From positions 29,512,001 through 29,576,000 of the forward strand of contig OZ024747.1 in NCBI GenBank assembly GCA_964016885.1: a stretch of DNA of 64,000 bases, read 5' to 3'. This stretch comes from Eledone cirrhosa. Its lineage: Eukaryota. The notes beneath the pieces were generated by a model. It ran no database searches. It had not been told where the DNA came from and worked only from the letters and a program-made list of their open reading frames with translations. The position numbers and the translations under genes were made by a program. Positions within the stretch are counted from its first letter, which is position 1. The number at the start of each line of letters is the position of its first letter. Positions 1-63,377 of the stretch are shown piece by piece.

Positions 1-117
1 AGATTGATTTTTTTTCTTTCGAAATATCTACTTTCTGATTTCGAAAATTGTTATATATTTTGTATTTTTAAAAAATTTTTCAGCGTGTATGTATAAATCT
101 ATAAACGCATTTTTTCC

Positions 118-19853: not shown

Positions 19854-19861
19854 CAAATTAT
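19846..19861 (-). other. Left SatB/SatC junction: TTTTTTTA direct-repeat copy (19846-19853) overlapping a 16-nt inverted SatC fragment
   Basis: TTTTTTTACAAATTAT is the exact reverse complement of ATAATTTGTAAAAAAA, the SatC X-unit core. It is followed by one T and then forward SatC from 19863. Confidence 0.85.
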
Positions 19862-22800
19862 TGAGATAACATTTAAAAAAATCAGGCGGAGATAATTTGT
19901 AAAAAAATCAGGGGGAGATAATTTGTAAAAAAATCAGGGGGAGATAATTTGTAAAAAAAATCAGGGGTAGATAATTTCCAGCCGTCCAAGGGGAGATAAT
20001 TTCCATCCTTCCAAGGGGAGATAATTTCCAGCCGTCCGAGGGGAGATAATTTCCCGCCAGCCAAGGAGAGATAATATTTAAAAAAATCAGGCGGAGATAA
20101 TTTGTAAAAAAAATCAGGGGGAGATAATTTGTAAAAAAATCAGGGGGAGATAATTTGTAAAAAAAAATCAGGGGAGATAATTTGTAAAAAAAATCAGGGG
20201 GAGATGATTTGTAAAAAAAAATCAGGGGTAGATAATTTGTAAAAAAAAATCAGGGGGAGATAATTTGTAAAAAAAAAATCAGGGGGAGATAATTTGTAAA
20301 AAAATCAAGGGGAGATAATTTCCAGCCGTCCAAGGGGAGATAATATTCAGCCGTCCAAGGAGGTAATTTCTAGCCGTCCAAGGGGAGATAATTTCCAGCC
20401 GTCCAAGGGGATATAATTTTTTTTTAAAAATCAGGCGGAGATAATTTGTAAACAAAAATCAGGGGGAGATAATTTGTAAAAAAAAATCAGGGGGAGATAA
20501 TTTGTAAAAAAAAATCAGGGGGAGATAATTTGTAAAAAAAATCAAGGGGAGATAATTTCCAGCCGTCCAAGGGGAGGTAATATCTAGCCATCCAAGGGGA
20601 GATAATTTCCAGCCGTCCAAGGGGAGATAATTTCCAGCCGTCCAAGGGGAGATAATATCCAGCCGTCCAAGGAGACATATTTTCCAGCCGTCCAAGGAGA
20701 GGTAATTTCTAGCCGTCCAAGGGGAGATAAGTTCCAGCCTCCAAGGGGAGAAAATTTCCAGCCAGCCAAGGGGAGATAATTTGTAAAAAAAAAATCAGGG
20801 GGAGATAATTTGTAAAAAAATCAGGGGGAGATAATTTGTAAAAAAAAAATCAGGGGGAGATAATTTGTAAAAAAAATCAGGGGGAGATAATTTGTAGAAA
20901 AAATCAGGGGTAGATAATTTGTAAAAAAAATCAGGGAGATAATTTGTAAAAAAAATCAGGGGGAGATAATTTGTAAAAAAAATCAGGGGTAGATAATTTT
21001 CAGCCGTCCAAGGGGAGATAATTTCCATCCTTCCAAGGGGAGATAATTTCCAGCCGTCCAAGGGGAGATAATTTCCCGCCAGCCAAGGAGAGATAACATT
21101 TTAAAAAATCAGGCGGAGATAATTTGTAAAAAAAATCAGGCGGAGATAATTTGTAAAAAAATCAGGGGGAGATAATTTGTAAAAAAAATCAGGGGTAGAT
21201 AATTTCCAGCCGTCCAAGGGGAGATAATTTCCATCCTTCCAAGGGGAGATAATTTCCAGCCGTCCAAGGGGAGATAATTTCCCGCCAGCCAAGGAGAGAT
21301 AATATTTAAAAAAATCAGGCGGAGATAATTTGTAAAAAAAATCAGGGGGAGATAATTTGTAAAAAAATCAGGGGGAGATAATTTGTAAAAAAAAATCAGG
21401 GGGAGATAATTTGTAAAAAAAATCAGGGGGAGATAATTTGTAAAAAAAAATCAGGGGTAGATAATTTGTAAAAAAAAATCAGGGGGAGATAATTTGTAAA
21501 AAAAAAATCAGGGGGAGATAATTTGTAAAAAAATCAAGGGGAGATAATTTCCAGCCGTCCAAGGGGAGATAATTTTCAGCCGTCCAAGGAGAGGTAATTT
21601 CTAGCCGTCCAAGGGGAGATAATTTCCAGCCAGCCAAGGGGAGATAATTTGTAAAAAAATCAGGGGTAGATAATTTGTAAAAAAAAATCAGGGGGAGATA
21701 ATTTGTAAAAAAAATCAGGGGGAGATAATTTGTAAAAAAAATCAGGGGTAGATAATTTCCAGCCGTCCAAGGGGAGATAATTTCCATCCTTCCAAGGGGA
21801 GATAATTTCCAGCCGTCCAAGGGGAGATAATTTCCCGCCAGCCAAGGAGAGATAACATTTAAAAAAATCAGGCGGAGATAATTTGTAAAAAAAATCAGGG
21901 GGAGATAATTTGTAAAAAAATCAGGGGGAGATAATTTGTAAAAAAAAAATCAGGGGGAGATAATTTGTAAAAAAAATCAGGGGGAGATAATTTGTAAAAA
22001 AAATCAGGGGTAGATAATTTGTAAAAAAAATCAGGGGGAGATAATTTGTAAAAAAAATCAGGGGGAGATAATTTGTAAAAAAAATCAGGGGTAGATAATT
22101 TCCAGCCGTCCAAGGGGAGATAATTTCCATCCTTCCAAGGGGAGATAATTTCCAGCCGTCCAAGGGGAGATAATTTCCCGCCAGCCAAGGAGAGATAACA
22201 TTTAAAAAAATCAGGCGGAGATAATTTGTAAAAAAAATCAGGGGGAGATAATTTGTAAAAAAATCAGGGGGAGATAATTTGTAAAAAAAATCAGGGGTAG
22301 ATAATTTCCAGCCGTCCAAGGGGAGATAATTTCCATCCTTCCAAGGGGAGATAATTTCCAGCCGTCCAAGGGGAGATAATTTCCCGCCAGCCAAGGAGAG
22401 ATAATATTTAAAAAAATCAGGCGGAGATAATTTGTAAAAAAAATCAGGGGGAGATAATTTGTAAAAAAATCAGGGAGAGATAATTTGTAAAAAAAAATCA
22501 GGGGAGATAATTTGTAAAAAAAATCAGGGGGAGATAATTTGTAAAAAAAATCAGGGGTAGATAATTTGTAAAAAAAAATCAGGGGGAGATAATTTGTAAA
22601 AAAAAAATCAGGGGGAGATAATTTGTAAAAAAATCAAGGGGAGATAATTTCCAGCCGTCCAAGGGGAGATAATTTTCAGCCGTCCAAGGAGGTAATTTCT
22701 AGCCGTCCAAGGGGAGATAATTTCCAGCCGTCCAAGGGGAGATAATTTTTTTAAAAAAATCAGGCGGAGATAATTTGTAAACAAAAATCAGGGGGAGATA

Positions 22801-23049
22801 ATTTGTAAAAAAAAATCAGGGGGAGATAATTTGTAAAAAAAAATCAGGGGGAGATAATTTGTAAAAAAAATCAGGGGTAGATAATTTCCAGCCGTCCAAG
22901 GGGAGATAATTTCCATCCTTCCAAGGGGAGATAATTTCCAGCCGTCCAAGGGGAGATAATTTCCCGCCAGCCAAGGAGAGATAATATTTAAAAAAATCAG
23001 GGGGAGATAATTTGTAAAAAAAAATCAGGGGGAGATAATTTGTAAAAAA

Positions 23050-26000
23050 AAATCAGGGGGAGATAATTTGTAAAAAAAATCAAGGGGAGATAATTTCCAG
23101 CCGTCCAAGGGGAGATAATTTTCAGCCGTCCAAGGAGAGGTAAATTCTAGCCGTCCAAGGGGAGATAATTTCCAGCCGTCCAAGGGGAGATAATTTTTAA
23201 AAAAAAATCAGGCGGAGATAATTTGTAAACAAAAATCAGGGGGAGATAATTTTTAGAAAAAAATCAGGGGGAGATAATTTGTAAAAAAAAATCAGGGGGA
23301 GATAATTTGTAAAAAAATCAAGGGGAGATAATTTCCAGCCGTCCAAGGGGAGGTAATATCTAGCCATCCAAGGGGAGATAATTTCCAGCCGTCCAAGGGG
23401 AGATAATTTCCAGCCGTCCAAGGGGAGATAATATCCAGCCGTCCAAGGAGACATATTTTCCAGCCGTCCAAGGAGAGGTAATTTCTAGCCGTCCAAGGGG
23501 AGATAAGTTCCAGCCTCCAAGGGGAGATAATTTCCAGCCAGCCAAGGGGAGATAATTTCTAAAAAAATCAGGGGGGAGATAATTTGTAAAAAAAATCAGG
23601 GGGAGATAATTTGAAAAAACATCAGGGGGAGATAATTTGTAAAAAATATCAAGGGGAGATAATTTCCAGCCCTCCAAGGGGCTATAATTTCCAGCCGTGC
23701 AAGGGGAGATAATTTCCAGCCGTCCAAGGGGAGATAATTTCCATCCTTCCAAGGGGAGATAATTTCCAGCCGTCCAAGGGGAGATAATTTCCCGCCAGCC
23801 AAGGGAAGATAATTTTTTAAAAAATCAGGCGGAGATTGTAAAAAAAATCAGGGGGAGATAATTTGTAAAAAAATCAGGGGGAGATAATTTGTAAAAAAAA
23901 AATCAGGGGGAGATAATTTGTAAAAAAAAATCAGGGGGAGATAATTTGTAAAAAAAATCAGGGGGAGATAATTTGTAAAAAAAATCAGGGGTAGATAATT
24001 TGTAAAAAAAATCAGGGGGAGATAATTTGTAAAAAAAATCAGGGGGAGATAATTTGTAAAATAAATCAGGGGTAGATAATTTTCAGCCGTCCAAGGGGAG
24101 ATAATTTCCATCCTTCCAAGGGGAGATAATTTCCAGCCGTCCAAGGGGAGATAATTTCCCGCCAGCCAAGGAGAGATAACATTTAAAAAAATCAGGCGGA
24201 GATAATTTGTAAAAAAATCAGGGGGAGATAATTTGTAAAAAAAATCAGGGGTAGATAATTTTCAGCCGTCCAAGGGGAGATAATTTCCATCCTTCCAAGG
24301 GGAGATAATTTCCAGCCGTCCAAGGGGAGATAATTTCCCGCCAGCCAAGGAGAGATAACATTTAAAAAAATCAGGGGGAGATAATTTGTAAAAAAAAATC
24401 AGGGGGAGATAATTCGTAAAAAAAAATCAGGGGGAGATAATTTGTAAAAAAAAATCAGGGGTAGATAATTTGTAAAAAAAAATCAGGGGGAGATAATTTG
24501 TAAAAAAAAAATCAGGGGGAGATAATTTGTAAAAAAATCAAGGGGAGATAATTTCCAGCCGTCCAAGGGGAGATAATTTTCAGCCGTCCAAGGAGAGGTA
24601 ATTTCTAGCCGTCCAAGGGGAGATAATTTCCAGCCGTCCAAGGGGAGATAATTTTTTAAAAAAAATCAGGCGGAGATAATTTGTAAACAGAAATCAGGGG
24701 GAGATAATTTGTAAAAAAAAATCAGGGGGAGATAATTTGTAAAAAAAAATCAGGGGGAGATAATTTGTAAAAAAAATCAAGGGGAGATAATTTCTAAAAA
24801 AAAATCAGGGGTAGATAATTTGTAAAAAAAAATCAGGGGGAGATAATTTGTAAAAAAAAAATCAGGGGGAGATAATTTGTAAAAAAATCAAGGGGAGATA
24901 ATTTCCAGCCGTCCAAGGGGAGATAATTTTCAGCCGTCCAAGGACAGGTAATTTCTAGCCGTCCAAGGGGAGATAATTTCCAGCCAGCCAAGGGGAGATA
25001 ATTTGTAAAAAAATCAGGGGTAGATAATTTGTAAAAAAAAATCAGGGGGAGATAATTTGTAAAAAAAATCAGGGGGAGATAATTTGTAAAAAAAATCAGG
25101 GGTAGATAATTTCCAGCCGTCCAAGGGGAGATAATTTCCATCCTTCCAAGGGGAGATAATTTCCAGCCGTCCAAGGGGAGATAATTTCAGGCCAGCCAAG
25201 GAGAGATAACATTTAAAAAAATCAGGCGGAGATAATTTGTAAAAAAAATCAGGGGGAGATAATTTGTAAAAAAATCAGGGGGAGATAATTTGTAAAAAAA
25301 ATCAGGGGTAGATAATTTCCAGCCGTCCAAGGGGAGATAATTTCCATCCTTCCAAGGGGAGATAATTTCCAGCCGTCCAAGGGGAGATAATTTCCCGCCA
25401 GCCAAGGAGAGATAATATTTAAAAAAATCAGGCGGAGATAATTTGTAAAAAAAATCAGGGGGAGATAATTTGTAAAAAAATCAGGGGGAGATAATTTGTA
25501 AAAAAAAATCAGGGGAGATAATTTGTAAAAAAAAATCAGGGGGAGATAATTTGTAAAAAAAAATCAGGGGTAGATAATTTGTAAAAAAAAATCAGGGGGA
25601 GATAATTTGTAAAAAAAAAATCAGGGGGAGATAATTTGTAAAAAAATCAAGGGGAGATAATTTCCAGCCGTCCAAGGGGAGATAATTTTCAGCCGTCCAA
25701 GTAGGTAATTTCTAGCCGTCCAAGGGGAGATAATTTCCAGCCGTCCAAGGGGATATAATTTTTTTTAAAAAATCAGGCGGAGATAATTTGTAAACAAAAA
25801 TCAGGGGGAGATAATTTGTAAAAAAAAATCAGGGGGAGATAATTTGTAAAAAAAAATCAGGGGGAGATAATTTGTAAAAAAAATCAAGGGGAGATAATTT
25901 CCAGCCGTCCAAGGGGAGGTAATATCTAGCCATCCAAGGGGAGATAATTTCCAGCCGTCCAAGGGGAGATAATTTCCAGCCGTCCAAGGGGAGATAATAT

Positions 26001-29000
26001 CCAGCCGTCCAAGGAGACATATTTTCCAGCCGTCCAAGGAGAGGTAATTTCTAGCCGTCCAAGGGGAGATAAGTTCCAGCCTCCAAGGGGAGAAAATTTC
26101 CAGCCAGTCAAGGGGAGATAATTTGTAAAAAAATCAGGGGGAGATAATTTGTAAAAAAAAAATCAGGGGGAGATAATTTGTAAAAAAATCAGGGGGAGAT
26201 AATTTGTAAAAAAAAAATCAGGGGGAGATAATTTGTAAAAAAAATCAGGGGGAGATAATTTGTAGAAAAAATCAGGGGTAGATAATTTGTAAAAAAAATC
26301 AGGAGGAGATAATTTGTAAAAAAAATCAGGGGGAGATAATTTGTAAAAAAAATCAGGGGGAGATAATTTGTAAAAAAATCAGGGGGAGATAATTTGTAAA
26401 AAAAATCAGGGGTAGATAATTTCCAGCCGTCCAAGAGGAGATAATTTCCATCCTTCCAAGGGGAGATAATTTCCAGCCGTCCAAGGGGAGATAATTTCCC
26501 GCCAGCCAAGGAGAGATAATATTTAAAAAATCAGGCGGAGATAATTTGTAAAAAAAATCAGGGGGAGATAATTTGTAAAAAAATCAGGGGGAGATAATTT
26601 GTAAAAAAAAATCAGGGGGAGATAATTTTTAAAAAAAATCAGGGGGAGATAATTTGTAAAAAAAAATCAGGGGTAGATAATTTGTAAAAAAAATCAGGGG
26701 GAGATAATTTGTAAAAAAAAAATCAGGGGGAGATAATTTGTAAAAAAATCAAGGGGAGATAATTTCCAGCCGTCCAAGGGGAGATAATTTTCAGCCGTCC
26801 AAGGAGAGGTAATTTCTAGCCGTCCAAGGGGAGATAATTTCCAGCCGTCCAAGGGGAGATAATTTTTTTAAAAAAATCAGGCGGAGATAATTTGTAAGCA
26901 AAAATCAGGGGGAGATAATTTGTAAAAAAAAATCAGGGGGAGATAATTTGTAAAAAAAAAATCAGGGGGTGATAATTTGTAAAAAAATCAAGGGGAGATA
27001 ATTTCCAGCCGTCCAAGGGGAGATAATTTCCAGCCGTCCAAGGGGAGATAATATCCGGCCGTCCAAGGAGACATATTTTCCAGCCGTCCAAGGAGAGGTA
27101 ATTTCTAGCCGTCCAAGGGGAGATAAGTTCCAGCCTCCAAGGGGAGATAATTTCCAGCCAGCCAAGGGGAGATAATTTGTAAAAAAATCAGGGGGAGATA
27201 ATTTGTAAAAAAAAAATCAGGGGGAGATAATTTGTAAAAAAAAAATCAGGGGGTGATAATTTGTAAAAAAATCAAGGGGAGATAATTTCCAGCCGTCCAA
27301 GGGGAGATAATTTTCAGCCGTCCAAGGAGAGGTAATTTCTAGCCGTCCAAGGGGAGATAATTTCCAGCCAGCCAAGGGGAGATAATTTGTAAAAAAATCA
27401 GGGGTAGATAATTTGTAAAAAAAAATCAGGGGGAGATAATTTGTAAGAAAAATCAGGGGGAGATAATTTGTAAAAAAAATCAGGGGTAGATAATTTCCAG
27501 CCGTCCAAGGGGAGATAATTTCCATCCTTCCAAGGGGAGATAATTTCCAGCCGTCCAAGGGGAGATAATTTCCCGCCAGCCAAGGAGAGATAACATTTAA
27601 AAAAATCAGGCGGAGATAATTTGTAAAAAAAATCAGGGGGAGATAATTTGTAAAAAAATCAGGGGGAGATAATTTGTAAAAAAAAAATCAGGGGGAGATA
27701 ATTTGTAAAAAAAATCAGGGGGAGATAATTTGTAAAAAAAATCAGGGGTAGATAATTTGTAAAAAAAATCAGGGGGAGATAATTTGTAAAAAAAATCAGG
27801 GGGAGATAATTTGTAAAAAAAATCAGGGGTAGATAATTTCCAGCCGTCCAAGGGGAGATAATTTCCATCCTTCCAAGGGGAGATAATTTCCAGCCGTCCA
27901 AGGGGAGATAATTTCCCGCCAGCCAAGGAGAGATAACATTTAAAAAAATCAGGCGGAGATAATTTGTAAAAAAAATCAGGGGGAGATAATTTGTAAAAAA
28001 ATCAGGGGGAGATAATTTGTAAAAAAAATCAGGGGTAGATAATTTCCAGCCGTCCAAGGGGAGATAATTTCCATCCTTCCAAGGGGAGATAATTTCCAGC
28101 CGTCCAAGGGGAGATAATTTCCCGCCAGCCAAGGAGAGATAATATTTAAAAAAATCAGGCGGAGATAATTTGTAAAAAAAATCAGGGGGAGATAATTTGT
28201 AAAAAAATCAGGGGGAGATAATTTGTAAAAAAAAATCAGGGGAGATAATTTGTAAAAAAAATCAGGGGGAGATAATTTGTAAAAAAAATCAGGGGTAGAT
28301 AATTTGTAAAAAAAAATCGGGGAGATAATTTGTAAAAAAAAAATCAGGGGGAGATAATTTGTAAAAAAATCAAGGGGAGATAATTTCCAGCCGTCCAAGG
28401 GGAGATAATTTTCAGCCGTCCAAGGAGGTAATTTCTAGCCGTCCAAGGGGAGATAATTTCCAGCCGTCCAAGGGGAGATAATTTTTTTTAAAAAATCAGG
28501 CGGAGATAATTTGTAAACAAAAATCAGGGGGAGATAATGTGTAAAAAAAAATTAGGGGGAGATAATTTGTAAAAAAAAATCATGGGGAGATAATTTGTAA
28601 AAAAATTCAGGGGTAGATAATTTCCAGCCGTCCAAGGGGAGATAATTTCCATCCTTCCAAGGGGAGATAATTTCCAGCCGTCCAAGGGGAGATAATTTCC
28701 CGCCAGCCAAGGAGAGATAATATTTAAAAAAATCAGGCGGGGATAATTTGTAAAAAAAATCAGGGGGAGATAATTTGTAAAAAAATCAGGGGGAGATAAT
28801 TTGTAAAAAAAAATCAGGGGGAGATAATTTGTAAAAAAAAATCAGGGGGAGATAATTTGTAAAAAAAAATCAGGGGGAGATAATTTGTAAAAAAAATCAA
28901 GGGGAGATAATTTCCAGCCGTCCAAGGGGAGATAATTTTCAGCCGTCCAAGGAGAGGTAAATTCTAGCCGTCCAAGGGGAGATAATTTCCAGCCGTCCAA

Positions 29001-35000: not shown

Positions 35001-38000
35001 AAAATCAGGGGTAGATAATTTGTAAAAAAAAATCAGGGGGAGATAATTTGTAAAAAAAAAATCAGGGGGAGATAATTTGTAAAAAAATCAAGGGGAGATA
35101 ATTTCCAGCCGTCCAAGGGGAGATAATTTTCAGCCGTCCAAGGACAGGTAATTTCTAGCCGTCCAAGGGGAGATAATTTCCAGCCAGCCAAGGGGAGATA
35201 ATTTGTAAAAAAATCAGGGGTAGATAATTTGTAAAAAAAAATCAGGGGGAGATAATTTGTAAAAAAAATCAGGGGGAGATAATTTGTAAAAAAAATCAGG
35301 GGTAGATAATTTCCAGCCGTCCAAGGGGAGATAATTTCCATCCTTCCAAGGGGAGATAATTTCCAGCCGTCCAAGGGGAGATAATTTCAGGCCAGCCAAG
35401 GAGAGATAACATTTAAAAAAATCAGGCGGAGATAATTTGTAAAAAAAATCAGGGGGAGATAATTTGTAAAAAAATCAGGGGGAGATAATTTGTAAAAAAA
35501 ATCAGGGGTAGATAATTTCCAGCCGTCCAAGGGGAGATAATTTCCATCCTTCCAAGGGGAGATAATTTCCAGCCGTCCAAGGGGAGATAATTTCCCGCCA
35601 GCCAAGGAGAGATAATATTTAAAAAAATCAGGCGGAGATAATTTGTAAAAAAAATCAGGGGGAGATAATTTGTAAAAAAATCAGGGGGAGATAATTTGTA
35701 AAAAAAAATCAGGGGAGATAATTTGTAAAAAAAAATCAGGGGGAGATAATTTGTAAAAAAAAATCAGGGGTAGATAATTTGTAAAAAAAAATCAGGGGGA
35801 GATAATTTGTAAAAAAAAAATCAGGGGGAGATAATTTGTAAAAAAATCAAGGGGAGATAATTTCCAGCCGTCCAAGGGGAGATAATTTTCAGCCGTCCAA
35901 GTAGGTAATTTCTAGCCGTCCAAGGGGAGATAATTTCCAGCCGTCCAAGGGGATATAATTTTTTTTAAAAAATCAGGCGGAGATAATTTGTAAACAAAAA
36001 TCAGGGGGAGATAATTTGTAAAAAAAAATCAGGGGGAGATAATTTGTAAAAAAAAATCAGGGGGAGATAATTTGTAAAAAAAATCAAGGGGAGATAATTT
36101 CCAGCCGTCCAAGGGGAGGTAATATCTAGCCATCCAAGGGGAGATAATTTCCAGCCGTCCAAGGGGAGATAATTTCCAGCCGTCCAAGGGGAGATAATAT
36201 CCAGCCGTCCAAGGAGACATATTTTCCAGCCGTCCAAGGAGAGGTAATTTCTAGCCGTCCAAGGGGAGATAAGTTCCAGCCTCCAAGGGGAGAAAATTTC
36301 CAGCCAGTCAAGGGGAGATAATTTGTAAAAAAATCAGGGGGAGATAATTTGTAAAAAAAAAATCAGGGGGAGATAATTTGTAAAAAAATCAGGGGGAGAT
36401 AATTTGTAAAAAAAAAATCAGGGGGAGATAATTTGTAAAAAAAATCAGGGGGAGATAATTTGTAGAAAAAATCAGGGGTAGATAATTTGTAAAAAAAATC
36501 AGGAGGAGATAATTTGTAAAAAAAATCAGGGGGAGATAATTTGTAAAAAAAATCAGGGGGAGATAATTTGTAAAAAAATCAGGGGGAGATAATTTGTAAA
36601 AAAAATCAGGGGTAGATAATTTCCAGCCGTCCAAGAGGAGATAATTTCCATCCTTCCAAGGGGAGATAATTTCCAGCCGTCCAAGGGGAGATAATTTCCC
36701 GCCAGCCAAGGAGAGATAATATTTAAAAAATCAGGCGGAGATAATTTGTAAAAAAAATCAGGGGGAGATAATTTGTAAAAAAATCAGGGGGAGATAATTT
36801 GTAAAAAAAAATCAGGGGGAGATAATTTGTAAAAAAAATCAGGGGGAGATAATTTGTAAAAAAAAATCAGGGGTAGATAATTTGTAAAAAAAAATCAGGG
36901 GGAGATAATTTGTAAAAAAAAAATCAGGGGGAGATAATTTGTAAAAAAATCAAGGGGAGATAATTTCCAGCCGTCCAAGGGGAGATAATTTTCAGCCGTC
37001 CAAGGAGAGGTAATTTCTAGCCGTCCAAGGGGAGATAATTTCCAGCCGTCCAAGGGGAGATAATTTTTTTTAAAAAATCAGGCGGAGATAATTTGTAAGC
37101 AAAAATCAGGGGGAGATAATTTGTAAAAAAAAATCAGGGGGAGATAATTTGTAAAAAAAAAATCAGGGGGTGATAATTTGTAAAAAAATCAAGGGGAGAT
37201 AATTTCCAGCCGTCCAAGGGGAGATAATTTCCAGCCGTCCAAGGGGAGATAATATCCGGCCGTCCAAGGAGACATATTTTCCAGCCGTCCAAGGAGAGGT
37301 AATTTCTAGCCGTCCAAGGGGAGATAAGTTCCAGCCTCCAAGGGGAGATAATTTCCAGCCAGCCAAGGGGAGATAATTTGTAAAAAAATCAGGGGGAGAT
37401 AATTTGTAAAAAAAAAATCAGGGGGAGATAATTTGTAAAAAAAAAATCAGGGGGTGATAATTTGTAAAAAAATCAAGGGGAGATAATTTCCAGCCGTCCA
37501 AGGGGAGATAATTTTCAGCCGTCCAAGGAGAGGTAATTTCTAGCCGTCCAAGGGGAGATAATTTCCAGCCAGCCAAGGGGAGATAATTTGTAAAAAAATC
37601 AGGGGTAGATAATTTGTAAAAAAAAATCAGGGGGAGATAATTTGTAAGAAAAATCAGGGGGAGATAATTTGTAAAAAAAATCAGGGGTAGATAATTTCCA
37701 GCCGTCCAAGGGGAGATAATTTCCATCCTTCCAAGGGGAGATAATTTCCAGCCGTCCAAGGGGAGATAATTTCCCGCCAGCCAAGGAGAGATAACATTTA
37801 AAAAAATCAGGCGGAGATAATTTGTAAAAAAAATCAGGGGGAGATAATTTGTAAAAAAATCAGGGGGAGATAATTTGTAAAAAAAAAATCAGGGGGAGAT
37901 AATTTGTAAAAAAAATCAGGGGGAGATAATTTGTAAAAAAAATCAGGGGTAGATAATTTGTAAAAAAAATCAGGGGGAGATAATTTGTAAAAAAAATCAG

Positions 38001-44000: not shown

Positions 44001-44950
44001 ATAATTTTTTAAAAAATCAGGCGGAGATTGTAAAAAAAATCAGGGGGAGATAATTTGTAAAAAAATCAGGGGGAGATAATTTGTAAAAAAAAAATCAGGG
44101 GGAGATAATTTGTAAAAAAAAATCAGGGGGAGATAATTTGTAAAAAAAATCAGGGGGAGATAATTTGTAAAAAAAATCAGGGGTAGATAATTTGTAAAAA
44201 AAATCAGGGGGAGATAATTTGTAAAAAAAATCAGGGGGAGATAATTTGTAAAAAAAATCAGGGGTAGATAATTTTCAGCCGTCCAAGGGGAGATAATTTC
44301 CATCCTTCCAAGGGGAGATAATTTCCAGCCGTCCAAGGGGAGATAATTTCCCGCCAGCCAAGGAGAGATAACATTTAAAAAAATCAGGCGGAGATAATTT
44401 GTTAAAAAATCAGGGGGAGATAATTTGTAAAAAAAATCAGGGGTAGATAATTTTCAGCCGTCCAAGGGGAGATAATTTCCATCCTTCCAAGGGGAGATAA
44501 TTTCCAGCCGTCCAAGGGGAGATAATTTCCCGCCAGCCAAGGAGAGATAACATTTAAAAAAATCAGGGGGAGATAATTTGTAAAAAAAAATCAGGGGGAG
44601 ATAATTCGTAAAAAAAAATCAGGGGGAGATAATTTGTAAAAAAAAAATCAGGGGTAGATAATTTGTAAAAAAAAATCAGGGGGAGATAATTTGTAAAAAA
44701 AAAATCAGGGGGAGATAATTTGTAAAAAAATCAAGGGGAGATAATTTCCAGCCGTCCAAGGGGAGATAATTTTCAGCCGTCCAAGGAGAGGTAATTTCTA
44801 GCCGTCCAAGGGGAGATAATTTCCAGCCGTCCAAGGGGAGATAATTTTTAAAAAAAAATCAGGCGGAGATAATTTGTAAACAAAAATCAGGGGGAGATAA
44901 TTTGTAAAAAAAAATCAGGGGGAGATAATTTGTAAAAAAAAATCAGGGGG
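23050..44950 (+). repeat. 10.2-kb higher-order tandem duplication in SatC, composed of related 5.82-kb and 4.38-kb subunits
   Basis: ORF-track pairs are offset 10200-10201 (23848/34048, 25801/36001, 27217/37418, 30514/40715, 31342/41543). The marker GCTATAAT occurs at 23681, 29500, 33881, 39701 and 43873 (spacings 5819, 4381, 5820, 4172). Boundaries are approximate. Confidence 0.92.
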
Positions 44951-47649
44951 AGATAATTTGTAAAAAAAATCAAGGGGAGATAATTTGTAAAAAAAAATCA
45001 GGGGTAGATAATTTGTAAAAAAAAATCAGGGGGAGATAATTTGTAAAAAAAAAATCAGGGGGAGATAATTTGTAAAAAAATCAAGGGGAGATAATTTCCA
45101 GCCGTCCAAGGGGAGATAATTTTCAGCCGTCCAAGGACAGGTAATTTCTAGCCGTCCAAGGGGAGATAATTTCCAGCCAGCCAAGGGGAGATAATTTGTA
45201 AAAAAATCAGGGGTAGATAATTTGTAAAAAAAAATCAGGGGGAGATAATTTGTAAAAAAAATCAGGGGGAGATAATTTGTAAAAAAAATCAGGGGTAGAT
45301 AATTACCAGCCGTCCAAGGGGAGATAATTTCCATCCTTCCAAGGGGAGATAATTTCCAGCCGTCCAAGGGGAGATAATTTCCCGCCAGCCAAGGAGAGAT
45401 AACATTTAAAAAAATCAGGCGGAGATAATTTGTAAAAAAAATCAGTGGGAGATAATTTGTAAAAAAATCAGGGGGAGATAATTTGTAAAAAAAATCAGGG
45501 GTAGATAATTTCCAGCCGTCCAAGGGGAGATAATTTCCATCCTTCCAAGGGGAGATAATTTCCAGCCGTCCAAGGGGAGATAATTTCCCGCCAGCCAAGG
45601 AGAGATAATATTTAAAAAAATCAGGCGGAGATAATTTGTAAAAAAAATCAGGGGGAGATAATTTGTAAAAAAATCAGGGGGAGATAATTTGTAAAAAAAA
45701 ATCAGGGGAGATAATTTGTAAAAAAAATCAGGGGGAGATAATTTGTAAAAAAAAATCAGGGGTAGATAATTTGTAAAAAAAAATCAGGGGGAGATAATTT
45801 GTAAAAAAAAAATCAGGGGGAGATAATTTGTAAAAAAATCAAGGGGAGATAATTTCCAGCCGTCCAAGGGGAGATAATTTTCAGCCGTCCAAGGAGGTAA
45901 TTTCTAGCCGTCCAAGGGGAGATAATTTCCAGCCGTCCAAGGGGATATAATTTTTTTTTAAAAATCAGGCGGAGATAATTTGTAAACAAAAATCAGGGGG
46001 AGATAATTTGTAAAAAAAAATCAGGGGGAGATAATTTGTAAAAAAAAATCAGGGGGAGATAATTTGTAAAAAAAATCAAGGGGAGATAATTTCCAGCCGT
46101 CCAAGGGGAGGTAATATCTAGCCATCCAAGGGGAGATAATTTCCAGCCGTCCAAGGGGAGATAATTTCCAGCCGTCCAAGGGGAGATAATATCCAGCCGT
46201 CCAAGGAGACATATTTTCCAGCCGTCCAAGGAGAGGTAATTTCTAGCCGTCCAAGGGGAGATAAGTTCCAGCCTCCAAGGGGAGAAAATTTCCAGCCAGC
46301 CAAGGGGAGATAATTTGTAAAAAAATCAGGGGGAGATAATTTGTAAAAAAAAAATCAGGGGGAGATAATTTGTAAAAAAATCAGGGGGAGATAATTTGTA
46401 AAAAAAAAATCAGGGGGAGATAATTTGTAAAAAAAATCAGGGGGAGATAATTTGTAGAAAAAATCAGGGGTAGATAATTTGTAAAAAAAATCAGGGGGAG
46501 ATAATTTGTAAAAAAAATCAGGGGGAGATAATTTGTAAAAAAAATCAGGGGTAGATAATTTTCAGCCGTCCAAGGGGAGATAATTTCCATCCTTCCAAGG
46601 GGAGATAATTTCCAGCCGTCCAAGGGGAGATAATTTCCCGCCAGCCAAGGAGAGATAACATTTAAAAAAATCAGGCGGAGATAATTTGTAAAAAAAATCA
46701 GGGGGAGATAATTTGTAAAAAAATCAGGGGGAGATAATTTGTAAAAAAAATCAGGGGTAGATAATTTCCAGCCGTCCAAGGGGAGATAATTTCCATCCTT
46801 CCAAGGGGAGATAATTTCCAGCCGTCCAAGGGGAGATAATTTCCCGCCAGCCAAGGAGAGATAATATTTAAAAAAATCAGGCGGAGATAATTTGTAAAAA
46901 AAATCAGGGGGAGATAATTTGTAAAAAAATCAGGGGGAGATAATTTGTAAAAAAAAATCAGGGGGAGATAATTTGTAAAAAAAATCAGGGGGAGATAATT
47001 TGTAAAAAAAAATCAGGGGTAGATAATTTGTAAAAAAAAATCAGGGGGAGATAATTTGTAAAAAAAAAATCAGGGGGAGATAATTTGTAAAAAAATCAAG
47101 GGGAGATAATTTCCAGCCGTCCAAGGGGAGATAATTTTCAGCCGTCCAAGGAGAGGTAATTTCTAGCCGTCCAAGGGGAGATAATTTCCAGCCGTCCAAG
47201 GGGAGATAATTTTTTTAAAAAAATCAGGCGGAGATAATTTGTAAACAAAAATCAGGGGGAGATAATTTGTAAAAAAAAATCAGGGGGAGATAATTTGTAA
47301 AAAAAAAATCAGGGGGTGATAATTTGTAAAAAAATCAAGGGGAGATAATTTCCAGCCGTCCAAGGGGAGATAATTTTCAGCCGTCCAAGGAGAGGTAATT
47401 TCTAGCCGTCCAAGGGGAGATAATTTCCAGCCAGCCAAGGGGAGATAATTTGTAAAAAAATCAGGGGTAGATAATTTGTAAAAAAAAATCAGGGGGAGAT
47501 AATTTGTAAAAAAAATCAGGGGGAGATAATTTGTAAAAAAATCAGGGGGAGATAATTTGTAAAAAAAATCAGGGGGAGATAATTTGTAAAAAAATCAGGG
47601 GGAGATAATTTGTAAAAAAAAAATCAGGGGGATATAATTTGTAAAAAAA

Positions 47650-50600
47650 ACAGGGCGAGATAATTTGTAAAAAAAATCAGGGGTAGATAATTTGTAAAAA
47701 AAATCAGGGGGAGATAATTTGTAAAAAAAATCAGGGGGAGATAATTTGTAAAAAAAATCAGGGGTAGATAATTTCCAGCCGTCCAAGGGGAGATAATTTC
47801 CATCCTTCCAAGGGGAGATAATTTCCAGCCGTCCAAGGGGAGATAATTTCCCGCCAGCCAAGGAGAGATAACATTTAAAAAAATCAGGCGGAGATAATTT
47901 GTAAAAAAAATCAGGGGGAGATAATTTGTAAAAAAATCAGGGGGAGATAATTTGTAAAAAAAATCAGGGGTAGATAATTTCCAGCCGTCCAAGGGGAGAT
48001 AATTTCCATCCTTCCAAGGGGAGATAATTTCCAGCCGTCCAAGGGGAGATAATTTCCCGCCAGCCAAGGAGAGATAATATTTAAAAAAATCAGGCGGAGA
48101 TAATTTGTAAAAAAAATCAGGGGGAGATAATTTGTAAAAAAATCAGGGGGAGATAATTTGTAAAAAAAAATCAGGGGAGATAATTTGTAAAAAAAATCAG
48201 GGGGAGATAATTTGTAAAAAAAATCAGGGGTAGATAATTTGTAAAAAAAAATCAGGGGGAGATAATTTGTAAAAAAAAAATCAGGGGGAGATAATTTGTA
48301 AAAAAATCAAGGGGAGATAATTTCCAGCCGTCCAAGGGGAGATAATTTTCAGCCGTCCAAGGAGGTAATTTCTAGCCGTCCAAGGGGAGATAATTTCCAG
48401 CCGTCCAAGGGGAGATAATTTTTTTAAAAAAATCAGGCGGAGATAATTTGTAAACAAAAATCAGGGGGAGATAATTTGTAAAAAAAAATCAGGGGGAGAT
48501 AATTTGTAAAAAAAAATCAGGGGGAGATAATTTGTAAAAAAAATCAAGGGGAGATAATTTCCAGCCGTCCAAGGGGAGGTAATATCTAGCCATCCAAGGG
48601 GAGATAATTTCCAGCCGTCCAAGGGGAGATAATTTCCAGCCGTCCAAGGGGAGATAATATCCAGCCGTCCAAGGAGACATATTTTCCAGCCGTCCAAGGA
48701 GAGGTAATTTCTAGCCGTCCAAGGGGAGATAAGTTCCAGCCTCCAAGGGGAGATAATTTCCAGCCAGCCAAGGGGAGATAATTTGTAAAAAAATCAGGGG
48801 GAGATAATTTGTAAAAAAAAAATCAGGGGGAGATAATTTGTAAAAAAATCAGGGGGAGATAATTTGTAAAAAAAAAATCAGGGGGAGATAATTTGTAAAA
48901 AAAATCAGGGGGAGATAATTTGTAAAAAAAATCAGGGGTAGATAATTTGTAAAAAAAATCAGGGGGAGATAATTTGTAAAAAAAATCAGGGGGAGATAAT
49001 TTGTAAAAAAAATCAGGGGTAGATAATTTTCAGCCGTCCAAGGGGAGATAATTTCCATCCTTCCAAGGGGAGATAATTTCCAGCCGTCCAAGGAGAGATA
49101 ATTTCCCGCCAGCCAAGGAGAGATAACATTTAAAAAAATCAGGCGGAGATAATTTGTAAAAAAAATCAGTGGGAGATAATTTGTAAAAAAATCAGGGGGA
49201 GATAATTTGTAAAAAAAATCAGGGGTAGATAATTTCCAGCCGTCCAAGGGGAGATAATTTCCATCCTTCCAAGGGGAGATAATTTCCAGCCGTCCAAGGG
49301 GAGATAATTTCCCGCCAGCCAAGGAGAGATAATATTTAAAAAAATCAGGCGGAGATAATTTGTAAAAAAAATCAGGGGGAGATAATTTGTAAAAAAAATC
49401 AGGGGGAGATAATTTGTAGAAAAAATCAGGGGTAGATAATTTGTAAAAAAAATCAGGGGGAGATAATTTGTAAAAAAAATCAGGGGGAGATAATTTGTAA
49501 AAAAAATCAGGGGTAGATAATTTTCAGCCGTCCAAGGGGAGATAATTTCCATCCTTCCAAGGGGAGATAATTTCCAGCCGTCCAAGGGGAGATAATCTCC
49601 CGCCAGCCAAGGAGAGATAACATTTAAAAAAATCAGGCGGAGATAATTTGTAAAAAAAATCAGGGGGAGATAATTTGTAAAAAAATCAGGGGGAGATAAT
49701 TTGTAAAAAAAATCAGGGGTAGATAATTTCCAGCCGTCCAAGGGGAGATAATTTCCATCCTTCCAAGGGGAGATAATTTCCAGCCGTCCAAGGGGAGATA
49801 ATTTCCCGCCAGCCAAGGAGAGATAATATTTAAAAAAATCAGGCGGAGATAATTTGTAAAAAAAATCAGGGGGAGATAATTTGTAAAAAAATCAGGGGGA
49901 GATAATTTGTAAAAAAAAATCAGGGGGAGATAATTTGTAAAAAAAATCAGGGGGAGATAATTTGTAAAAAAAATCAGGGGTAGATAATTTGTAAAAAAAA
50001 ATCAGGGGGAGATAATTTGTAAAAAAAAAATCAGGGGGAGATAATTTGTAAAAAAATCAAGGGGAGATAATTTCCAGCCGTCCAAGGGGAGATAATTTTC
50101 AGCCGTCCAAGGAGAGGTAATTTCTCGCCGTCCAAGGGGAGATAATTTCCAGCCGTCCAAGGGGAGATAATTTTTTTAAAAAAATCAGGCGGAGATAATT
50201 TGTAAAAAAAAATCAGGGGGAGATAATTTGTAAAAAAAAATCAGGGGGAGATAATTTGTAAAAAAAATCAAGGGGAGATAATTTCCAGCCGTCCAAGGGG
50301 AGGTAATATCTAGCCATCCAAGGGGAGATAATTTCCAGCCGTCCAAGGGGAGATAATTTCCAGCCGTCCAAGGGGAGATAATATCCAGCCGTCCAAGGAG
50401 ACATATTTTCCAGCCGTCCAAGGAGAGGTAATTTCTAGCCGTCCAAGGGGAGATAAGTTCCAGCCTCCAAGGGGAGATAATTTCCAGCCAGCCAAGGGGA
50501 GATAATTTGTAAAAAAATCAGGGGGAGATAATTTGTAAAAAAAAAATCAGGGGGAGATAATTTGTAAAAAAATCAGGGGGAGATAATTTGTAAAAAAAAA

Positions 50601-56600: not shown

Positions 56601-57650
56601 AATTTCCATCCTTCCAAGGGGAGATAATTTCCAGCCGTCCAAGGGGAGATAATTTCCCGCCAGCCAAGGAGAGATAACATTTAAAAAAATCAGGCGGAGA
56701 TAATTTGTAAAAAAAATCAGGGGGAGATAATTTGTAAAAAAATCAGGGGGAGATAATTTGTAAAAAAAATCAGGGGTAGATAATTTCCAGCCGTCCAAGG
56801 GGAGATAATTTCCATCCTTCCAAGGGGAGATAATTTCCAGCCGTCCAAGGGGAGATAATTTCCCGCCAGCCAAGGAGAGATAATATTTAAAAAAATCAGG
56901 CGGAGATAATTTGTAAAAAAAATCAGGGGGAGATAATTTGTAAAAAAATCAGGGGGAGATAATTTGTAAAAAAAAATCAGGGGAGATAATTTGTAAAAAA
57001 AATCAGGGGGAGATAATTTGTAAAAAAAATCAGGTGTAGATAATTTGTAAAAAAAAATCAGGGGGAGATAATTTGTAAAAAAAAAATCAGGGGGAGATAA
57101 TTTGTAAAAAAATCAAGGGTAGATAATTTCCAGCCGTCCAAGGGGAGATAATTTTCAGCCGTCCAAGGAGGTAATTTCTAGCCGTCCAAGGGGAGATAAT
57201 TTCCAGCCGTCCAAGGGGAGATAATTTTTTTAAAAAAATCAGGCGGAGATAATTTGTAAACAAAAATCAGGGGGAGATAATTTGTAAAAAAAAATCAGGG
57301 GGAGATAATTTGTAAAAAAAAATCAGGGGGAGATAATTTGTAAAAAAAATCAAGGGGAGATAATTTCCAGCCGTCCAAGGGGAGGTAATATCTAGCCATC
57401 CAAGGGGAGATAATTTCCAGCCGTCCAAGGGGAGATAATTTCCAGCCGTCCAAGGGGAGATAATATCCAGCCGTCCAAGGAGACATATTTTCCAGCCGTC
57501 CAAGGAGAGGTAATTTCTAGCCGTCCAAGGGGAGATAAGTTCCAGCCTCCAAGGGGAGATAATTTCCAGCCAGCCAAGGGGAGATAATTTGTAAAAAAAT
57601 CAGGGGGAGATAATTTGTAAAAAAAAAATCAGGGGGAGATAATTTGTAAA
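47650..57650 (+). repeat. 4506/4300-bp higher-order tandem repeat domain in SatC
   Basis: Offsets of 4506 (48461/52967, 49166/53672, 50185/54691) are followed by offsets of 4300 (51389/55689, 52074/56374, 52967/57267). The difference is one 206-bp module. Boundaries are approximate. Confidence 0.9.
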
Positions 57651-60600
57651 AAAATCAGGGGGAGATAATTTGTAAAAAAAAAATCAGGGGGAGACAATTT
57701 GTAAAAAAAATCAGGGGGAGATAATTTGTAGAAAAAATCAGGGGTAGATAATTTGTAAAAAAAATCAGGGGGAGATAATTTGTAAAAAAAATCAGGGGGA
57801 GATAATTTGTAAAAAAAATCAGGGGTAGATAATTTTCAGCCGTCCAAGGGGAGATAATTTCCATCCTTCCAAGGGGAGATAATTTCCAGCCGTCCAAGGG
57901 GAGATAATCTCCCGCCAGCCAAGGAGAGATAACATTTAAAAAAATCAGGCGGAGATAATTTGTAAAAAAAATCAGGGGGAGATAATTTGTAAAAAAATCA
58001 GGGGTAGATAATTTCCAGCCGTCCAAGGGGAGATAATTTCCATCCTTCCAAGGGGAGATAATTTCCAGCCGTCCAAGGGGAGATAATTTCCCGCCAGCCA
58101 AGGAGAGATAATATTTAAAAAAATCAGGCGGAGATAATTTGTAAAAAAAATCAGGGGGAGATAATTTGTAAAAAAATCAGGGGGAGATAATTTGTAAAAA
58201 AAAATCAGGGGAGATAATTTGTAAAAAAAATCAGGGGGAGATAATTTGTAAAAAAAATCAGGGGTAGATAATTTGTAAAAAAAAATCAGGGGGAGATAAT
58301 TTGTAAAAAAAAAATCAGGGGGAGATAATTTGTAAAAAAATCAAGGGTAGATAATTTCCAGCCGTCCAAGGGGAGATAATTTTCAGCCGTCCAAGGAGGT
58401 AATTTCTAGCCGTCCAAGGGGAGATAATTTCCAGCCGTCCAAGGGGAGATAATTTTTTTAAAAAAATCAGGCGGAGATAATTTGTAAACAAAAATCAGGG
58501 GGAGATAATTTGTAAAAAAAAATCAGGGGGAGATAATTTGTAAAAAAAAATCAGGGGGAGATAATTTGTAAAAAAAATCAAGGGGAGATAATTTCCAGCC
58601 GTCCAAGGGGAGGTAATATCTAGCCATCCAAGGGGAGATAATTTCCAGCCGTCCAAGGGGAGATAATTTCCAGCCGTCCAAGGGGAGATAATATCCAGCC
58701 GTCCAAGGAGACATATTTTCCAGCCGTCCAAGGAGAGGTAATTTCTAGCCGTCCAAGGGGAGATAAGTTCCAGCCTCCAAGGGGAGATAATTTCCAGCCA
58801 GCCAAGGGGAGATAATTTGTAAAAAAATCAGGGGGAGATAATTTGTAAAAAAAAAATCAGGGGGAGATAATTTGTAAAAAAATCAGGGGGAGATAATTTG
58901 TAAAAAAAAAATCAGGGGGAGATAATTTGTAAAAAAAATCAGGGGGAGATAATTTGTAGAAAAAATCAGGGGTAGATAATTTGTAAAAAAAATCAGGGGG
59001 AGATAATTTGTAAAAAAAATCAGGGGGAGATAATTTGTAAAAAAAATCAGGGGTAGATAATTTTCAGCCGTCCAAGGGGAGATAATTTCCATCCTTCCAA
59101 GGGGAGATAATCTCCCGCCAGCCAAGGAGAGATAACATTTAAAAAAATCAGGCGGAGATAATTTGTAAAAAAAATCAGGGGGAGATAATTTGTAAAAAAA
59201 TCAGGGGGAGATAATTTGTAAAAAAAATCAGGGGTAGATAATTTCCAGCCCTCCAAGGGGAGATAATTTCCATCCTTCCAAGGGGAGATAATTTCCAGCC
59301 GTCCAAGGGGAGATAATTTCTCGCCAGCCAAGGAGAGATAATATTTAAAAAAATCAGGCGGAGATAATTTGTAAAAAAAATCAGGGGGAGATAATTTGTA
59401 AAAAAATCAGGGGGAGATAATTTGTAAAAAAAAATCAGGGGGAGATAATTTGTAAAAAAAATCAGGGGGAGATAATTTGTAAAAAAAATCAGGGGTAGAT
59501 AATTTGTAAAAAAAAATCAGGGGGAGATAATTTGTAAAAAAAAAATCAGGGGGAGATAATTTGTAAAAAAATCAAGGGGAGATAATTTCCAGCCGTCCAA
59601 GGGGAGATAATTTTCAGCCGTCCAAGGAGAGGTAATTTCTAGCCGTCCAAGGGGAGATAATTTCCAGCCGTCCAAGGGGAGATAATTTTTTTAAAAAAAT
59701 CAGGCGGAGATAATTTGTAAACAAAAATCAGGGGGAGATAATTTGTAAAAAAAAATCAGGGGGAGATAATTTGTAAAAAATAATCAGGGGGAGATAATTT
59801 GTAAAAAAAATCAAGGGGAGATAATTTCCAGCCGTCCAAGGGGAGGTAATATCTAGCCATCCAAGGGGAGATAATTTCCAGCCGTCCAAGGGGAGATAAT
59901 TTCCAGCCGTCCAAGGGGAGATAATATCCAGCCGTCCAAGGAGACATATTTTCCAGCCGTCCAAGGAGAGGTAATTTCTAGCCGTCCAAGGGGAGATAAG
60001 TTCCAGCCTCCAAGGGGAGATAATTTCCAGCCAGCCAAGGGGAGATAATTTGTAAAAAAATCAGGGGGAGATAATTTGTAAAAAAAAAATCAGGGGCAGA
60101 TAATTTGTAAAAAAATCAGGGGGAGATAATTTGTAAAAAAAAAATCAGGGGGAGATAATTTGTAAAAAAAATCAGGGGGAGATAATTTGTAAAAAAAATC
60201 AGGGGTAGATAATTTGTAAAAAAAATCAGGGGGAGATAATTTGTAAAAAAAATCAGGGGTAGATAATTTTCAGCCGTCCAAGGGGAGATAATTTCCATCC
60301 TTCCAAGGGGAGATAATTTCCAGCCGTCCAAGGAGAGATAATTTCCCGCCAGCCAAGGAGAGATAACATTTAAAAAAATCAGGCGGAGATAATTTGTAAA
60401 AAAAATCAGGGGGAGATAATTTGTAAAAAAATCAGGGGGAGATAATTTGTAAAAAAAATCAGGGGTAGATAATTTCCAGCCGTCCAAGGGGAGATAATTT
60501 CCATCCTTCCAAGGGGAGATAATTTCCAGCCGTCCAAGGGGAGATAATTTCCCGCCAGCCAAGGAGAGATAATATTTAAAAAAATCAGGCGGAGATAATT

Positions 60601-61270
60601 TGTAAAAAAAATCAGGGGGAGATAATTTGTAAAAAAATCAGGGGGAGATAATTTGTAAAAAAAAATCAGGGGGAGATAATTTGTAAAAAAAATCAGGGGG
60701 AGATAATTTGTAAAAAAAATCAGGGGTAGATAATTTGTAAAAAAAAATCAGGGGGAGATAATTTGTAAAAAAAAAATCAGTGGGAGATAATTTGTAAAAA
60801 AATCAAGGGGAGATAATTTCCAGCCGTCCAAGGGGAGATAATTTTCAGCCGTCCAAGGAGAGGTAATTTCTAGCCGTCCAAGGGGAGATAATTTCCAGCC
60901 GTCCAAGGGGAGATAATTTTTTTAAAAAAGTCAGGCGGAGATAATTTGTAAACAAAAATCAGGGGGAGATAATTTGTAAAAAAAAATCAGGGGGAGATAA
61001 TTTGTAAAAAAAATCAGGGGGAGATAATTTGTAAAAAAAATCAAGGGGAGATAATTTCCAGCCGTCCAAGGGGAGGTAATATCTAGCCATCCAAGGGGAG
61101 ATAATTTCCAGCCGTCCAAGGGGAGATAATTTCCAGCCGTCCAAGGGGAGATAATATCCAGCCGTCCAAGGAGACATATTTTCCAGCCGTCCAAGGAGAC
61201 GTAATTTCTAGCCGTCCAAGGGGAGATAAGTTCCAGCCTCCAAGGGGAGATAATTTCCAGCCAGCCAAGG
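57240..61270 (+). repeat. ~1.23-kb basic higher-order unit of SatC in tandem (~3 copies)
   Basis: The long Y block (marker GAGACATATTTT) recurs at ORF-track coordinates 57503, 58731, 59964 and 61194 (spacings 1228, 1233, 1230). Confidence 0.88.
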
Positions 61271-63377
61271 GGAGATAATTTGGAAAAAAATTAGGGGGAG
61301 ATAATTTGTAAAAAAAAATTAGGGGGAGATAATTTGTAAAAAAAAATCAGGGGGAGATAATTTGTAAAAAAAAATCAGGGGGAGATAATTTGTAAAAAGA
61401 ATCAAGGGGAGATAATTTCCAGCCGTCCAAGGGGAGATAATTTTCAGCCGTCCAAGGAGAGGTAAATTCTAGCCGTCCAAGGAGATATAATTTCCAGCCG
61501 TCCAAGGGGAGATAATTTCCAGCCGTCCAAGGGGAGATAATTTTTAAAAAAAAATCAGGCGGAGATAATTTGTAAACAAAAATCAGGGGGAGATAATTTT
61601 TAAAAAAAGAAGTCAGGGGGAGATAATTTGTAAAAAAAAATCAGGGGGAGATAATTTGTAAAAAAAATCAAGGGGAGATAATTTCCAGCCGTCCAAGGGG
61701 AGGTAATATCTAGCCATCCAAGGGGAGATAATTTCCAGCCGTCCAAGGGGAGATAATTTCCAGCCGTCCAAGGGGAGATAATATCCAGCCGTCCAAGGAG
61801 ACATATTTTCCAGCCGTCCAAGGAGAGGTAATTTCTAGCCGTCCAAGGGGAGATAAGTTCCAGCCTCCAAGGGGAGATAATTTCCAGCCAGCCAAGGGGA
61901 GATAATTTGTAAAAAAATCAGGGGGGAGATAATTTGTAAAAAAAATCAGGGGGAGATAATTTGAAAAAAAAAATCAGGGGGAGATAATTTGTAAAAAATA
62001 TCAAGGGGAGATAATTTCCAGCCCTCCAAGGGGCTATAATTTCCAGCCGTGCAAGGGGAGATAATTTCCAGCCGTCCAAGGGGAGATAATTTCCATCCTT
62101 CCAAGGGGAGATAATTTCCAGCCGTCCAAGGGGAGATAATTTCCCGCCAGCCAAGGGAAGATAATTTTTTAAAAAATCAGGCGGAGATTGTAAAAAAAAT
62201 CAGGGGGAGATAATTTGTAAAAAAATCAGGGGGAGATAATTTGTAAAAAAAAATCAGGGGGAGATAATTTGTAAAAAAAATCAGGGGGAGATAATTTGTA
62301 AAAAAAATCAGGGGTAGATAATTTGTAAAAAAAATCAGGGGGAGATAATTTGTAAAAAAAATCAGGGGGAGATAATTTGTAAAAAAAATCAGGGGTAGAT
62401 AATTTTCAGCCGTCCAAGGGGAGATAATTTCCATCCTTCCAAGGGGAGATAATTTCCAGCCGTCCAAGGGGAGATAATTTCCCGCCAGCCAAGGAGAGAT
62501 AACATTTAAAAAAATCAGGCGGAGATAATTTGTAAAAAAATCAGGGGGAGATAATTTGTAAAAAAAATCAGGGGTAGATAATTTCCAGCCGTCCAAGGGG
62601 AGATAATTTCCATCCTTCCAAGGGGAGATAATTTCCAGCCGTCCAAGGGGAGATAATTTCCCGCCAGCCAAGGAGAGATAATATTTAAAAAAATCAGGCG
62701 GAGATAATTTGTAAAAAAAATCAGGGGGAGATAATTTGTAAAAAAATCAGGGGGAGATAATTTGTAAAAAAAAATCAGGGGGAGATAATTTGTAAAAAAA
62801 AATCAGGGGGAGATAATTTGTAAAAAAAAATCAGGGGTAGATAATTTGTAAAAAAAAATCAGGGGGAGATAATTTGTAAAAAAAAAATCAGGGGGAGATA
62901 ATTTGTAAAAAAATCAAGGGGAGATAATTTCCAGCCGTCCAAGGGGAGATAATTTTCAGCCGTCCAAGGAGAGGTAATTTCTAGCCGTCCAAGGGGAGAT
63001 AATTTCCAGCCGTCCAAGGGGAGATAATTTTTTAAAAAAAATCAGGCGGAGATAATTTGTAAACAAAAATCAGGGGGAGATAATTTGTAAAAAAAAATCA
63101 GGGGGAGATAATTTGTAAAAAAAAATCAGGGGGAGATAATTTGTAAAAAAAATCAAGGGGAGATAATTTGTAAAAAAAAATCAGGGGTAGATAATTTGTA
63201 AAAAAAAATCAGGGGGAGATAATTTGTAAAAAAAAAATCAGGGGGAGATAATTTGTAAAAAAATCAAGGGGAGATAATTTCCAGCCGTCCAAGGGGAGAT
63301 AATTTTCAGCCGTCCAAGGAGAGGTAATTTCTAGCCGTCCAAGGGGAGATAATTTCCAGCCAGCCAAGGGGAGATAA

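Follow-up and report, generated by a model that had tools for sequence, protein, structure and literature searches.

Organization of the Locus

A 64,000-nucleotide stretch of the Eledone cirrhosa genome (assembly GCA_964016885.1, 3.0 Gb), located at C7:29,512,001-29,576,000, where C7 denotes contig OZ024747.1, harbors a block of one satellite DNA, SatC, joined on both sides to another, SatB. This whole stretch is referred to as the window, and positions without a contig name are counted from its first letter. SatA, SatB, and SatC are the labels given to three satellites in a preliminary description of the window; C1, C2, C3, C5, C134, C272, and C1499 designate other contigs of the same assembly, with C2 being chromosome-scale and C134 unplaced (102 kb). 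The SatC block is one unit of a larger composite, (SatB-SatC)8-SatB, which occupies the 343 kb between two assembly gaps on C7 and is gap-free inside. Because the same two junctions recur and the block starts are nearly alike, it is very probable that one junction pair arose once and then multiplied, all units being its descendants.

Within the window, the left SatB block (B0, 7254-19853, plus strand) is built of 20-bp monomers and terminates in T7-A, the start of a G-run type monomer. The left junction (19846-19862, minus strand) consists of an inverted copy of SatC sequence and one extra T. The SatC block that follows (19863-63380, plus strand) is the first of the eight on C7 and comprises 1,661 monomers of 23-30 bp (25-bp class) arranged in irregular multi-kb higher-order repeats. 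It closes at the right junction (63378-63380, plus strand), from which the SatB spacer B1 runs to the window end (63378-64000, plus strand; 2,581 bp in full). An identical left junction opens the next SatC block, ~2 kb beyond the window end.

All SatB and SatC bins of C7 lie on one strand, with no internal inversion. At one mismatch or fewer, the left junction is present eight times on C7 and twice on C134, identical at all ten places, and the right junction eight times on C7 and once on C134 (nine copies); neither occurs elsewhere in the assembly. A one-off insertion is ruled out by this recurrence. All nine right junctions have a left junction before them and, as a result, no outer SatC boundary is assembled. 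The C7 SatC blocks measure 43,518, 29,335, 52,085, 871, 30,316, 8,759, 26,243, and 26,398 bp, a 60-fold size range, and the inner SatB spacers 2,581, 2,581, 2,765, 2,765, 2,771, 11,095, and 9,261 bp. The outer SatB blocks, of at least 12.6 kb (B0) and 79.3 kb, both stop at assembly gaps. On C134, the order is SatB (1.7 kb), SatC (47.9 kb), SatB (35.0 kb), and SatC (17.5 kb, to the contig end).

The first 800 bp of the eight C7 blocks differ from one another by 0-4 edits and from C134 by 3-11 edits. The SatC blocks share internal variants in a stepwise manner and differ in length, module order, and private variants. Together with the size spread, this stepwise sharing is more consistent with unequal exchange than with repeated copying of a single fixed unit. 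Internal repeats of 10.2 kb within the SatC block show no mismatches over the 1 kb tested and are best read as recent local duplications. The smallest block (871 bp, 34 monomers; C7:29,664,749-29,665,619) keeps both junctions, and the SatB spacer on either side of it is 2,765 bp long with an identical string of monomers; this block appears to be a multi-kb block collapsed by internal exchange. C134 carries the same junctions but other internal higher-order repeats and another last module; it represents the other haplotype or, alternatively, a continuation that a gap conceals.

SatA, a 278-bp AT-rich satellite, fills positions 1-7053 (plus strand) and is separated from B0 by a gap of 200 N (7054-7253), the left edge of the 343-kb stretch that holds the composite. 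SatA is found on both sides of this stretch in the same orientation, each time behind a 200-N gap; its placement thus rests on scaffolding. SatB carries G-runs of 7-10 on one strand per 40-60 bp, and SatC carries G4-5 runs per 25 bp on the same strand. Such G-quadruplex-prone sequence could favor breaks here.

Structure of the Junctions

At the left seam, the final T7-A of SatB (8 nt, 19846-19853) and the next 8 nt (19854-19861) together form a perfect 16-nt reverse complement of a SatC A-rich monomer, and one extra T (19862) lies between this inverted filler and the SatC start. The 8-nt filler is templated, since just 13 of the 65,536 possible 8-mers come after T7-A in reverse SatC. Its source is not localizable to one monomer because the 16-mer occurs 732 times in the SatC block. 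The same 16-mer straddles the end breakpoint in three of three intact internal references (see below). At the right seam, the SatC monomer core and the SatB T7 run share a 3-nt microhomology, TTT.

The 8-nt microhomology and 8-nt inverted filler on the left, together with the 3 nt on the right, are hallmarks of alternative end joining of the synthesis-dependent microhomology-mediated (SD-MMEJ) or theta type. The seams suggest a single alternative end-joining event, after which the SatB-SatC composite may have been amplified by unequal exchange. SD-MMEJ at an engineered break in Drosophila likewise combines a short templated insertion primed at a microhomology with a microhomology at the other seam. 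In contrast to that system, the C7 seam is an old germline junction at which end joining is deduced from sequence, and its template is not tied to one monomer.

SatA was considered as the source of the filler and rejected, the filler being present in neither strand of the window's SatA. A target-site duplication could likewise be read in the T7-A at both SatB ends, and its phase is right, with T7 standing before G-run monomers in 1,528 of 1,651 cases; because each position is also a microhomology site, this was not counted as evidence. No read or contig of four public runs (two contig sets and two sets of restriction site-associated DNA sequencing, RAD-seq) covers the filler, and no listed piece spans the junction; as RAD coverage is too thin and other individuals may have been sampled, this speaks neither for nor against the junction.

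A second, independent, gapless SatB-to-SatC junction lies on the minus strand of C5 at ~64,303,940. It has the same relative orientation and a different seam, with more diverged monomers on both sides, and ~60 kb of SatC stands there beside >100 kb of SatB. A pure SatB contig, C272, contains an inversion point at ~37,740, where the strand switches at a short palindromic seam.

Register of the Block Ends

The SatC block had been described as circularly permuted, its end rejoining its start almost in higher-order register with 201 bp missing. Edit-distance scans across the window's SatC block confirm the register itself. Internal ends at 25004, 35204, and 45197 lie 3, 3, and 2 edits away from the final 380 bp of the block (to 63380), the next best match having 11. 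The first 900 bp (19863-20762, plus strand) match internal starts at 25203, 35403, and 45396 with 7, 7, and 5 edits, and both rare markers reported for two of these pairings are present in the block start and in the internal references. Further matches of the first 900 bp begin at 47865 (9 edits), 56671 (11), and 52371 (12). In all three internal references, end and start are 201 bp apart, or 198 bp if the TTT common with SatB is assigned to SatC. The spacers lie at 25002-25202, 35202-35402, and 45195-45395 (plus strand); the second belongs to the 10.2-kb duplicate of the first reference and had been overlooked, while the other two stand as originally given. The missing piece amounts to eight monomers minus 7-10 bp, four A-rich and four C-rich in the tokenization used here, in line with the proposal of about one 4X+4Y module.

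The match of the block end to internal copies is unit for unit over the ~380 bp originally claimed (2-3 edits) but does not extend further: the last 900 bp (62481-63380, plus strand), the terminal higher-order copy, have no match within 6% inside the window's SatC block by the same scans. Against 11 internal C7 references, they differ by 58-59 edits, and none of the 11 is of the terminal copy type. The end and start of the block thus belong to different higher-order copy types. End and start sequences 198-201 bp apart are found at 10 of the 11 internal C7 sites and at 15 of 45 C2 sites. Joining the SatC end directly to the start, with a gap of zero, yields a sequence that no internal copy resembles well (34 edits over 800 bp).

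That such register might arise by chance had been conceded from the outset, and it does so with appreciable frequency. When 220 random ends were paired with 220 random starts from the block (48,400 pairs, which are not independent), an absolute gap of at most 201 bp was attained at the strict threshold by 4,940 pairs (10.2%), or by 3,778 (7.8%) with a breakpoint's own position barred. A one-sided gap (0 to 201 bp missing) was attained by 5.5% and, with own position barred, 4.2%; at least three supporting references, as observed, were reached by 4.6% and 2.8%, respectively. At looser thresholds, 14-36% of random pairs attain register (35.6% at the loosest). For random breakpoints of another block placed on a C2 stretch of 165 kb, 28,900 pairs were drawn and 11,554 could be mapped, of which 1,460 (12.6%) attained the register. 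Random breakpoints thus do as well or better in ~8-13% of cases under strict thresholds and in up to 36% under loose ones, which partly undercuts the original argument. The register is only weakly beyond chance, suggestive and not decisive. The near-match of the ends does not prove a DNA circle because chance reaches such register too easily.

Relationship to the C2 Array

SatC forms large arrays elsewhere in the assembly (4,291 matches of one 32-mer). The higher-order subfamily of the window's block fills C2 at ~244-250 Mb, and its markers have further matches on C1499 and C3. Within C7, two of the subfamily markers occur nowhere but in the composite. The comparison covered 385 kb of the multi-Mb C2 SatC domain, with the rest of that domain, C1499, and the C1 array lying outside it. 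The C2 domain shows a megabase-scale inverted arrangement: its strand is minus at 246.7-247.2 Mb and plus from 248.5 Mb onward.

Of the 45 C2 sites matching the last 380 bp of the block, 12 also match the terminal 900 bp at 4-7 edits, against the 58-59 edits to the C7 references. The expectation that the terminal segments would resemble the same internal copy more than any other SatC subfamily was therefore borne out only in part. Over the terminal 3 kb, the copy at C2:250,124,990 is 18 edits away (~0.6% divergence). None of the 11 C7 sites, and none of the 45 C2 sites in the 385 kb compared, combines a terminal-type end with a following start that bears both markers.

Origin of the Composite

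The reading favored here, at a probability of about 0.4, is that a linear, multi-repeat piece of C2-type SatC was placed in SatB by one microhomology-mediated repair event, in which case the near-register of 198-201 bp is likely a coincidence. The same junctions at all eight C7 blocks, the microhomologies, the inverted 8-nt filler, and the match to the C2 subfamily are observed; we infer the steps of repair and exchange as follows. A break would have occurred inside a SatB T7-A run. The SatB 3' end would then have primed on a SatC A7 tract via the 8-nt microhomology and copied 8 nt in inverted orientation. The copied SatB end would have been released and joined to the SatC start, and the other side joined at TTT, the whole repair proceeding by alternative end joining or a template switch. 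Subsequently, unequal exchange between SatB flanks would have duplicated the unit, while exchange inside SatC and inside SatB resized the blocks to 0.87-52 kb and left the seams intact. In favor of SatC entering SatB, a single event is sufficient, the subfamily markers on C7 are limited to the composite, and no outer SatC boundary has been assembled.

Several observations weigh against this reading. Insertion into SatB predicts a good join at the empty site, and so a poor rejoin counts against it: when the SatB flanks are joined across the block and compared with other SatB copies, they show 32 edits over 600 bp, and 29 of 50 random phase-matched joins do at least as well, although this is a weak test, as true contiguous SatB sites are as bad in 10 of 40, 11 of 30, and 6 of 40 cases. 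The outer SatB blocks may be inner spacers themselves, since both end at gaps, the inner SatB of C134 reaches 35 kb, and a rare motif in the tail of the 79-kb block recurs within the final 2 kb of that 35-kb block. The register, if coincidental, nevertheless beats ~90% of random pairs, or 94-96% when scored one-sidedly. On C2, start-type sequence lies 198 bp after the terminal-type end in 6 of the 12 cases, none with either start marker, and at two more places a terminal-type end, one monomer short, is followed by the spacer and by a start bearing one marker of the pair. The contiguous donor arrangement that had been sought thus exists on C2 with a 198-bp spacer; an exact collinear donor was not found in the 385 kb compared. 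The start markers may be a later conversion, given the two one-marker places on C2 and a C134 block that begins without either marker. End-198 bp-start is thus an ordinary adjacency of this SatC subfamily. An argument that SatB is the resident satellite because SatA is its usual neighbor elsewhere was dropped, as 0 of 20 sampled 3-kb SatB flanks were SatA.

The direction may also have been the reverse. Although somewhat less probable, a SatB segment could have entered a SatC array on C7, deleting 198 bp at the target site, and the SatB-containing unit could then have been amplified; such an insertion would give the same register without a circle. It predicts the asymmetry that is observed, with SatC near register and SatB not, and it agrees with the finding that inner SatB can be long (35 kb on C134). 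In line with this direction, the B0-similarity profile of the 79-kb block is that of the C134 inner block (strong toward either end, weak between them), the 16 nt at the filler span the end breakpoint in intact references, and SatC and SatB adjoin directly on C5 too. However, it needs two events close in time, namely SatC reaching C7 (~0.6% from C2) and SatB then entering it. The C7 assembly contains no outer boundary of SatC of this subfamily, each right junction coming after a left one, and the pre-insertion neighborhood, a terminal-type end with a both-marker start, is missing from the 11 C7 and 45 C2 sites. The filler 16-mer, with its 732 copies, adds little to locating the breakpoint on this account, being not localizable.

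The proposal that had accompanied the claim of register, in which a circle from a C2-type SatC array was opened, lost ~200 bp, was end-joined into SatB, and expanded, is unlikely as it stands. Much of its outline survives: integration-like entry in a single event that left end-joining scars, expansion afterward, and an array of donor type on C2. What falls away is the register as proof of a circle, given that chance attains it in 8-13% of pairs and that entry of SatB into SatC predicts it equally. A circle would account for the near register of the block ends and for the contiguity of end, 198 bp, and start on C2, where the copy at C2:250,124,990 is the best match for the terminal 3 kb and tied best for the first 900 bp in the 165-kb stretch. 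The filler and seams are also compatible with a single repair event at which both SatC ends were present, and satellites on circles are reported in Drosophila and Tribolium. A rolling-circle multimer would repeat the terminal copy inside the block, so internal terminal copies are expected; none of the eight C7 blocks contains one, and this signature is thus lacking there. On C134, two internal copies lie within 30-32 edits of the terminal 900 bp, although these partial copies could also come from later exchange. One start marker occurs in 11 C2 copies, none of them after a terminal-type end, and a loss of 198 bp is larger than typical for end joining. A fuller version, likewise doubtful, would have a C2-derived circle opened on C7 and stitched into SatB by theta-type repair, with the filler copied from the circle's own far end, thereby seeding a composite macro-satellite that is possibly still polymorphic.

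It is highly improbable that the multi-copy arrangement is partly an assembly artifact of mis-joined or duplicated satellite reads. The region is gap-bounded, some internal repeats are identical over 1 kb, and the filler is uncovered in the four public runs, although such holes prove nothing. However, the blocks vary in length, module order, and private variants, the C134 blocks show the same junctions in clearly different arrays, and an assembler inventing the same 9-nt filler in 10 contexts is implausible.

Comparison with Known Satellite Cassettes

The C7 locus belongs among the known satellite-in-satellite cassettes, for which close published parallels exist. In Tribolium madens, TmSat2 cassettes lie within TmSat1, and 5,764 arrays were analyzed across many contigs (PMC13081366). 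Like the composite described here, these place a satellite within a satellite in repeated units with two conserved, different junctions at opposite sides (TRANS_1 and TRANS_2) and a variable repeat number; one junction truncates sharply and carries a duplicated 6-nt motif. The TmSat2 cassettes have an internal inversion (macro-dyad) and related monomers, whereas the C7 composite has no inversion, unrelated monomers, and a templated inverted filler. The C7/C134 composite has 10 known units, at one locus and on one unplaced contig.

Insertion of Rsp-like into 1.688 satellites in the Drosophila simulans clade similarly involves unrelated satellites, short microhomology joins, and a junction common to several clusters, as reported in a preprint (bioRxiv 10.1101/846238). 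There, a rare hybrid is described as spreading or expanding by unequal exchange, with the choice between circles and gene conversion or template switching left open. The Rsp-like clusters are small and scattered through euchromatin, and one of their junctions is fixed, the other variable (bioRxiv 10.1101/846238); here, both junctions are fixed and the composite is amplified in tandem over at least 250 kb. The Cast satellites of Tribolium castaneum, an example of spread mediated by extrachromosomal circular DNA, share interchromosomal movement and poly(A)/poly(T) junctions with microhomology (PMC11610590). Circles were detected in T. castaneum by 2D gels, whereas the C7 case is known from sequence alone and its signature is equivocal (PMC11610590). 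In a literature search that covered few subscription journals, no title dealt with a circularly permuted satellite insert resolved to the base.

The composite alone does not demonstrate circle-mediated spread of satellites. If a circle was indeed involved, the locus would document at base resolution how a circle carried a satellite from its donor to an amplified product. The locus offers a readable young example of one satellite entering another: one scar of repair, ten descendant units, and a donor subfamily that sits on a different chromosome at ~0.6% divergence. With block sizes that vary 60-fold between fixed seams, the order and size of the unequal exchanges become traceable.

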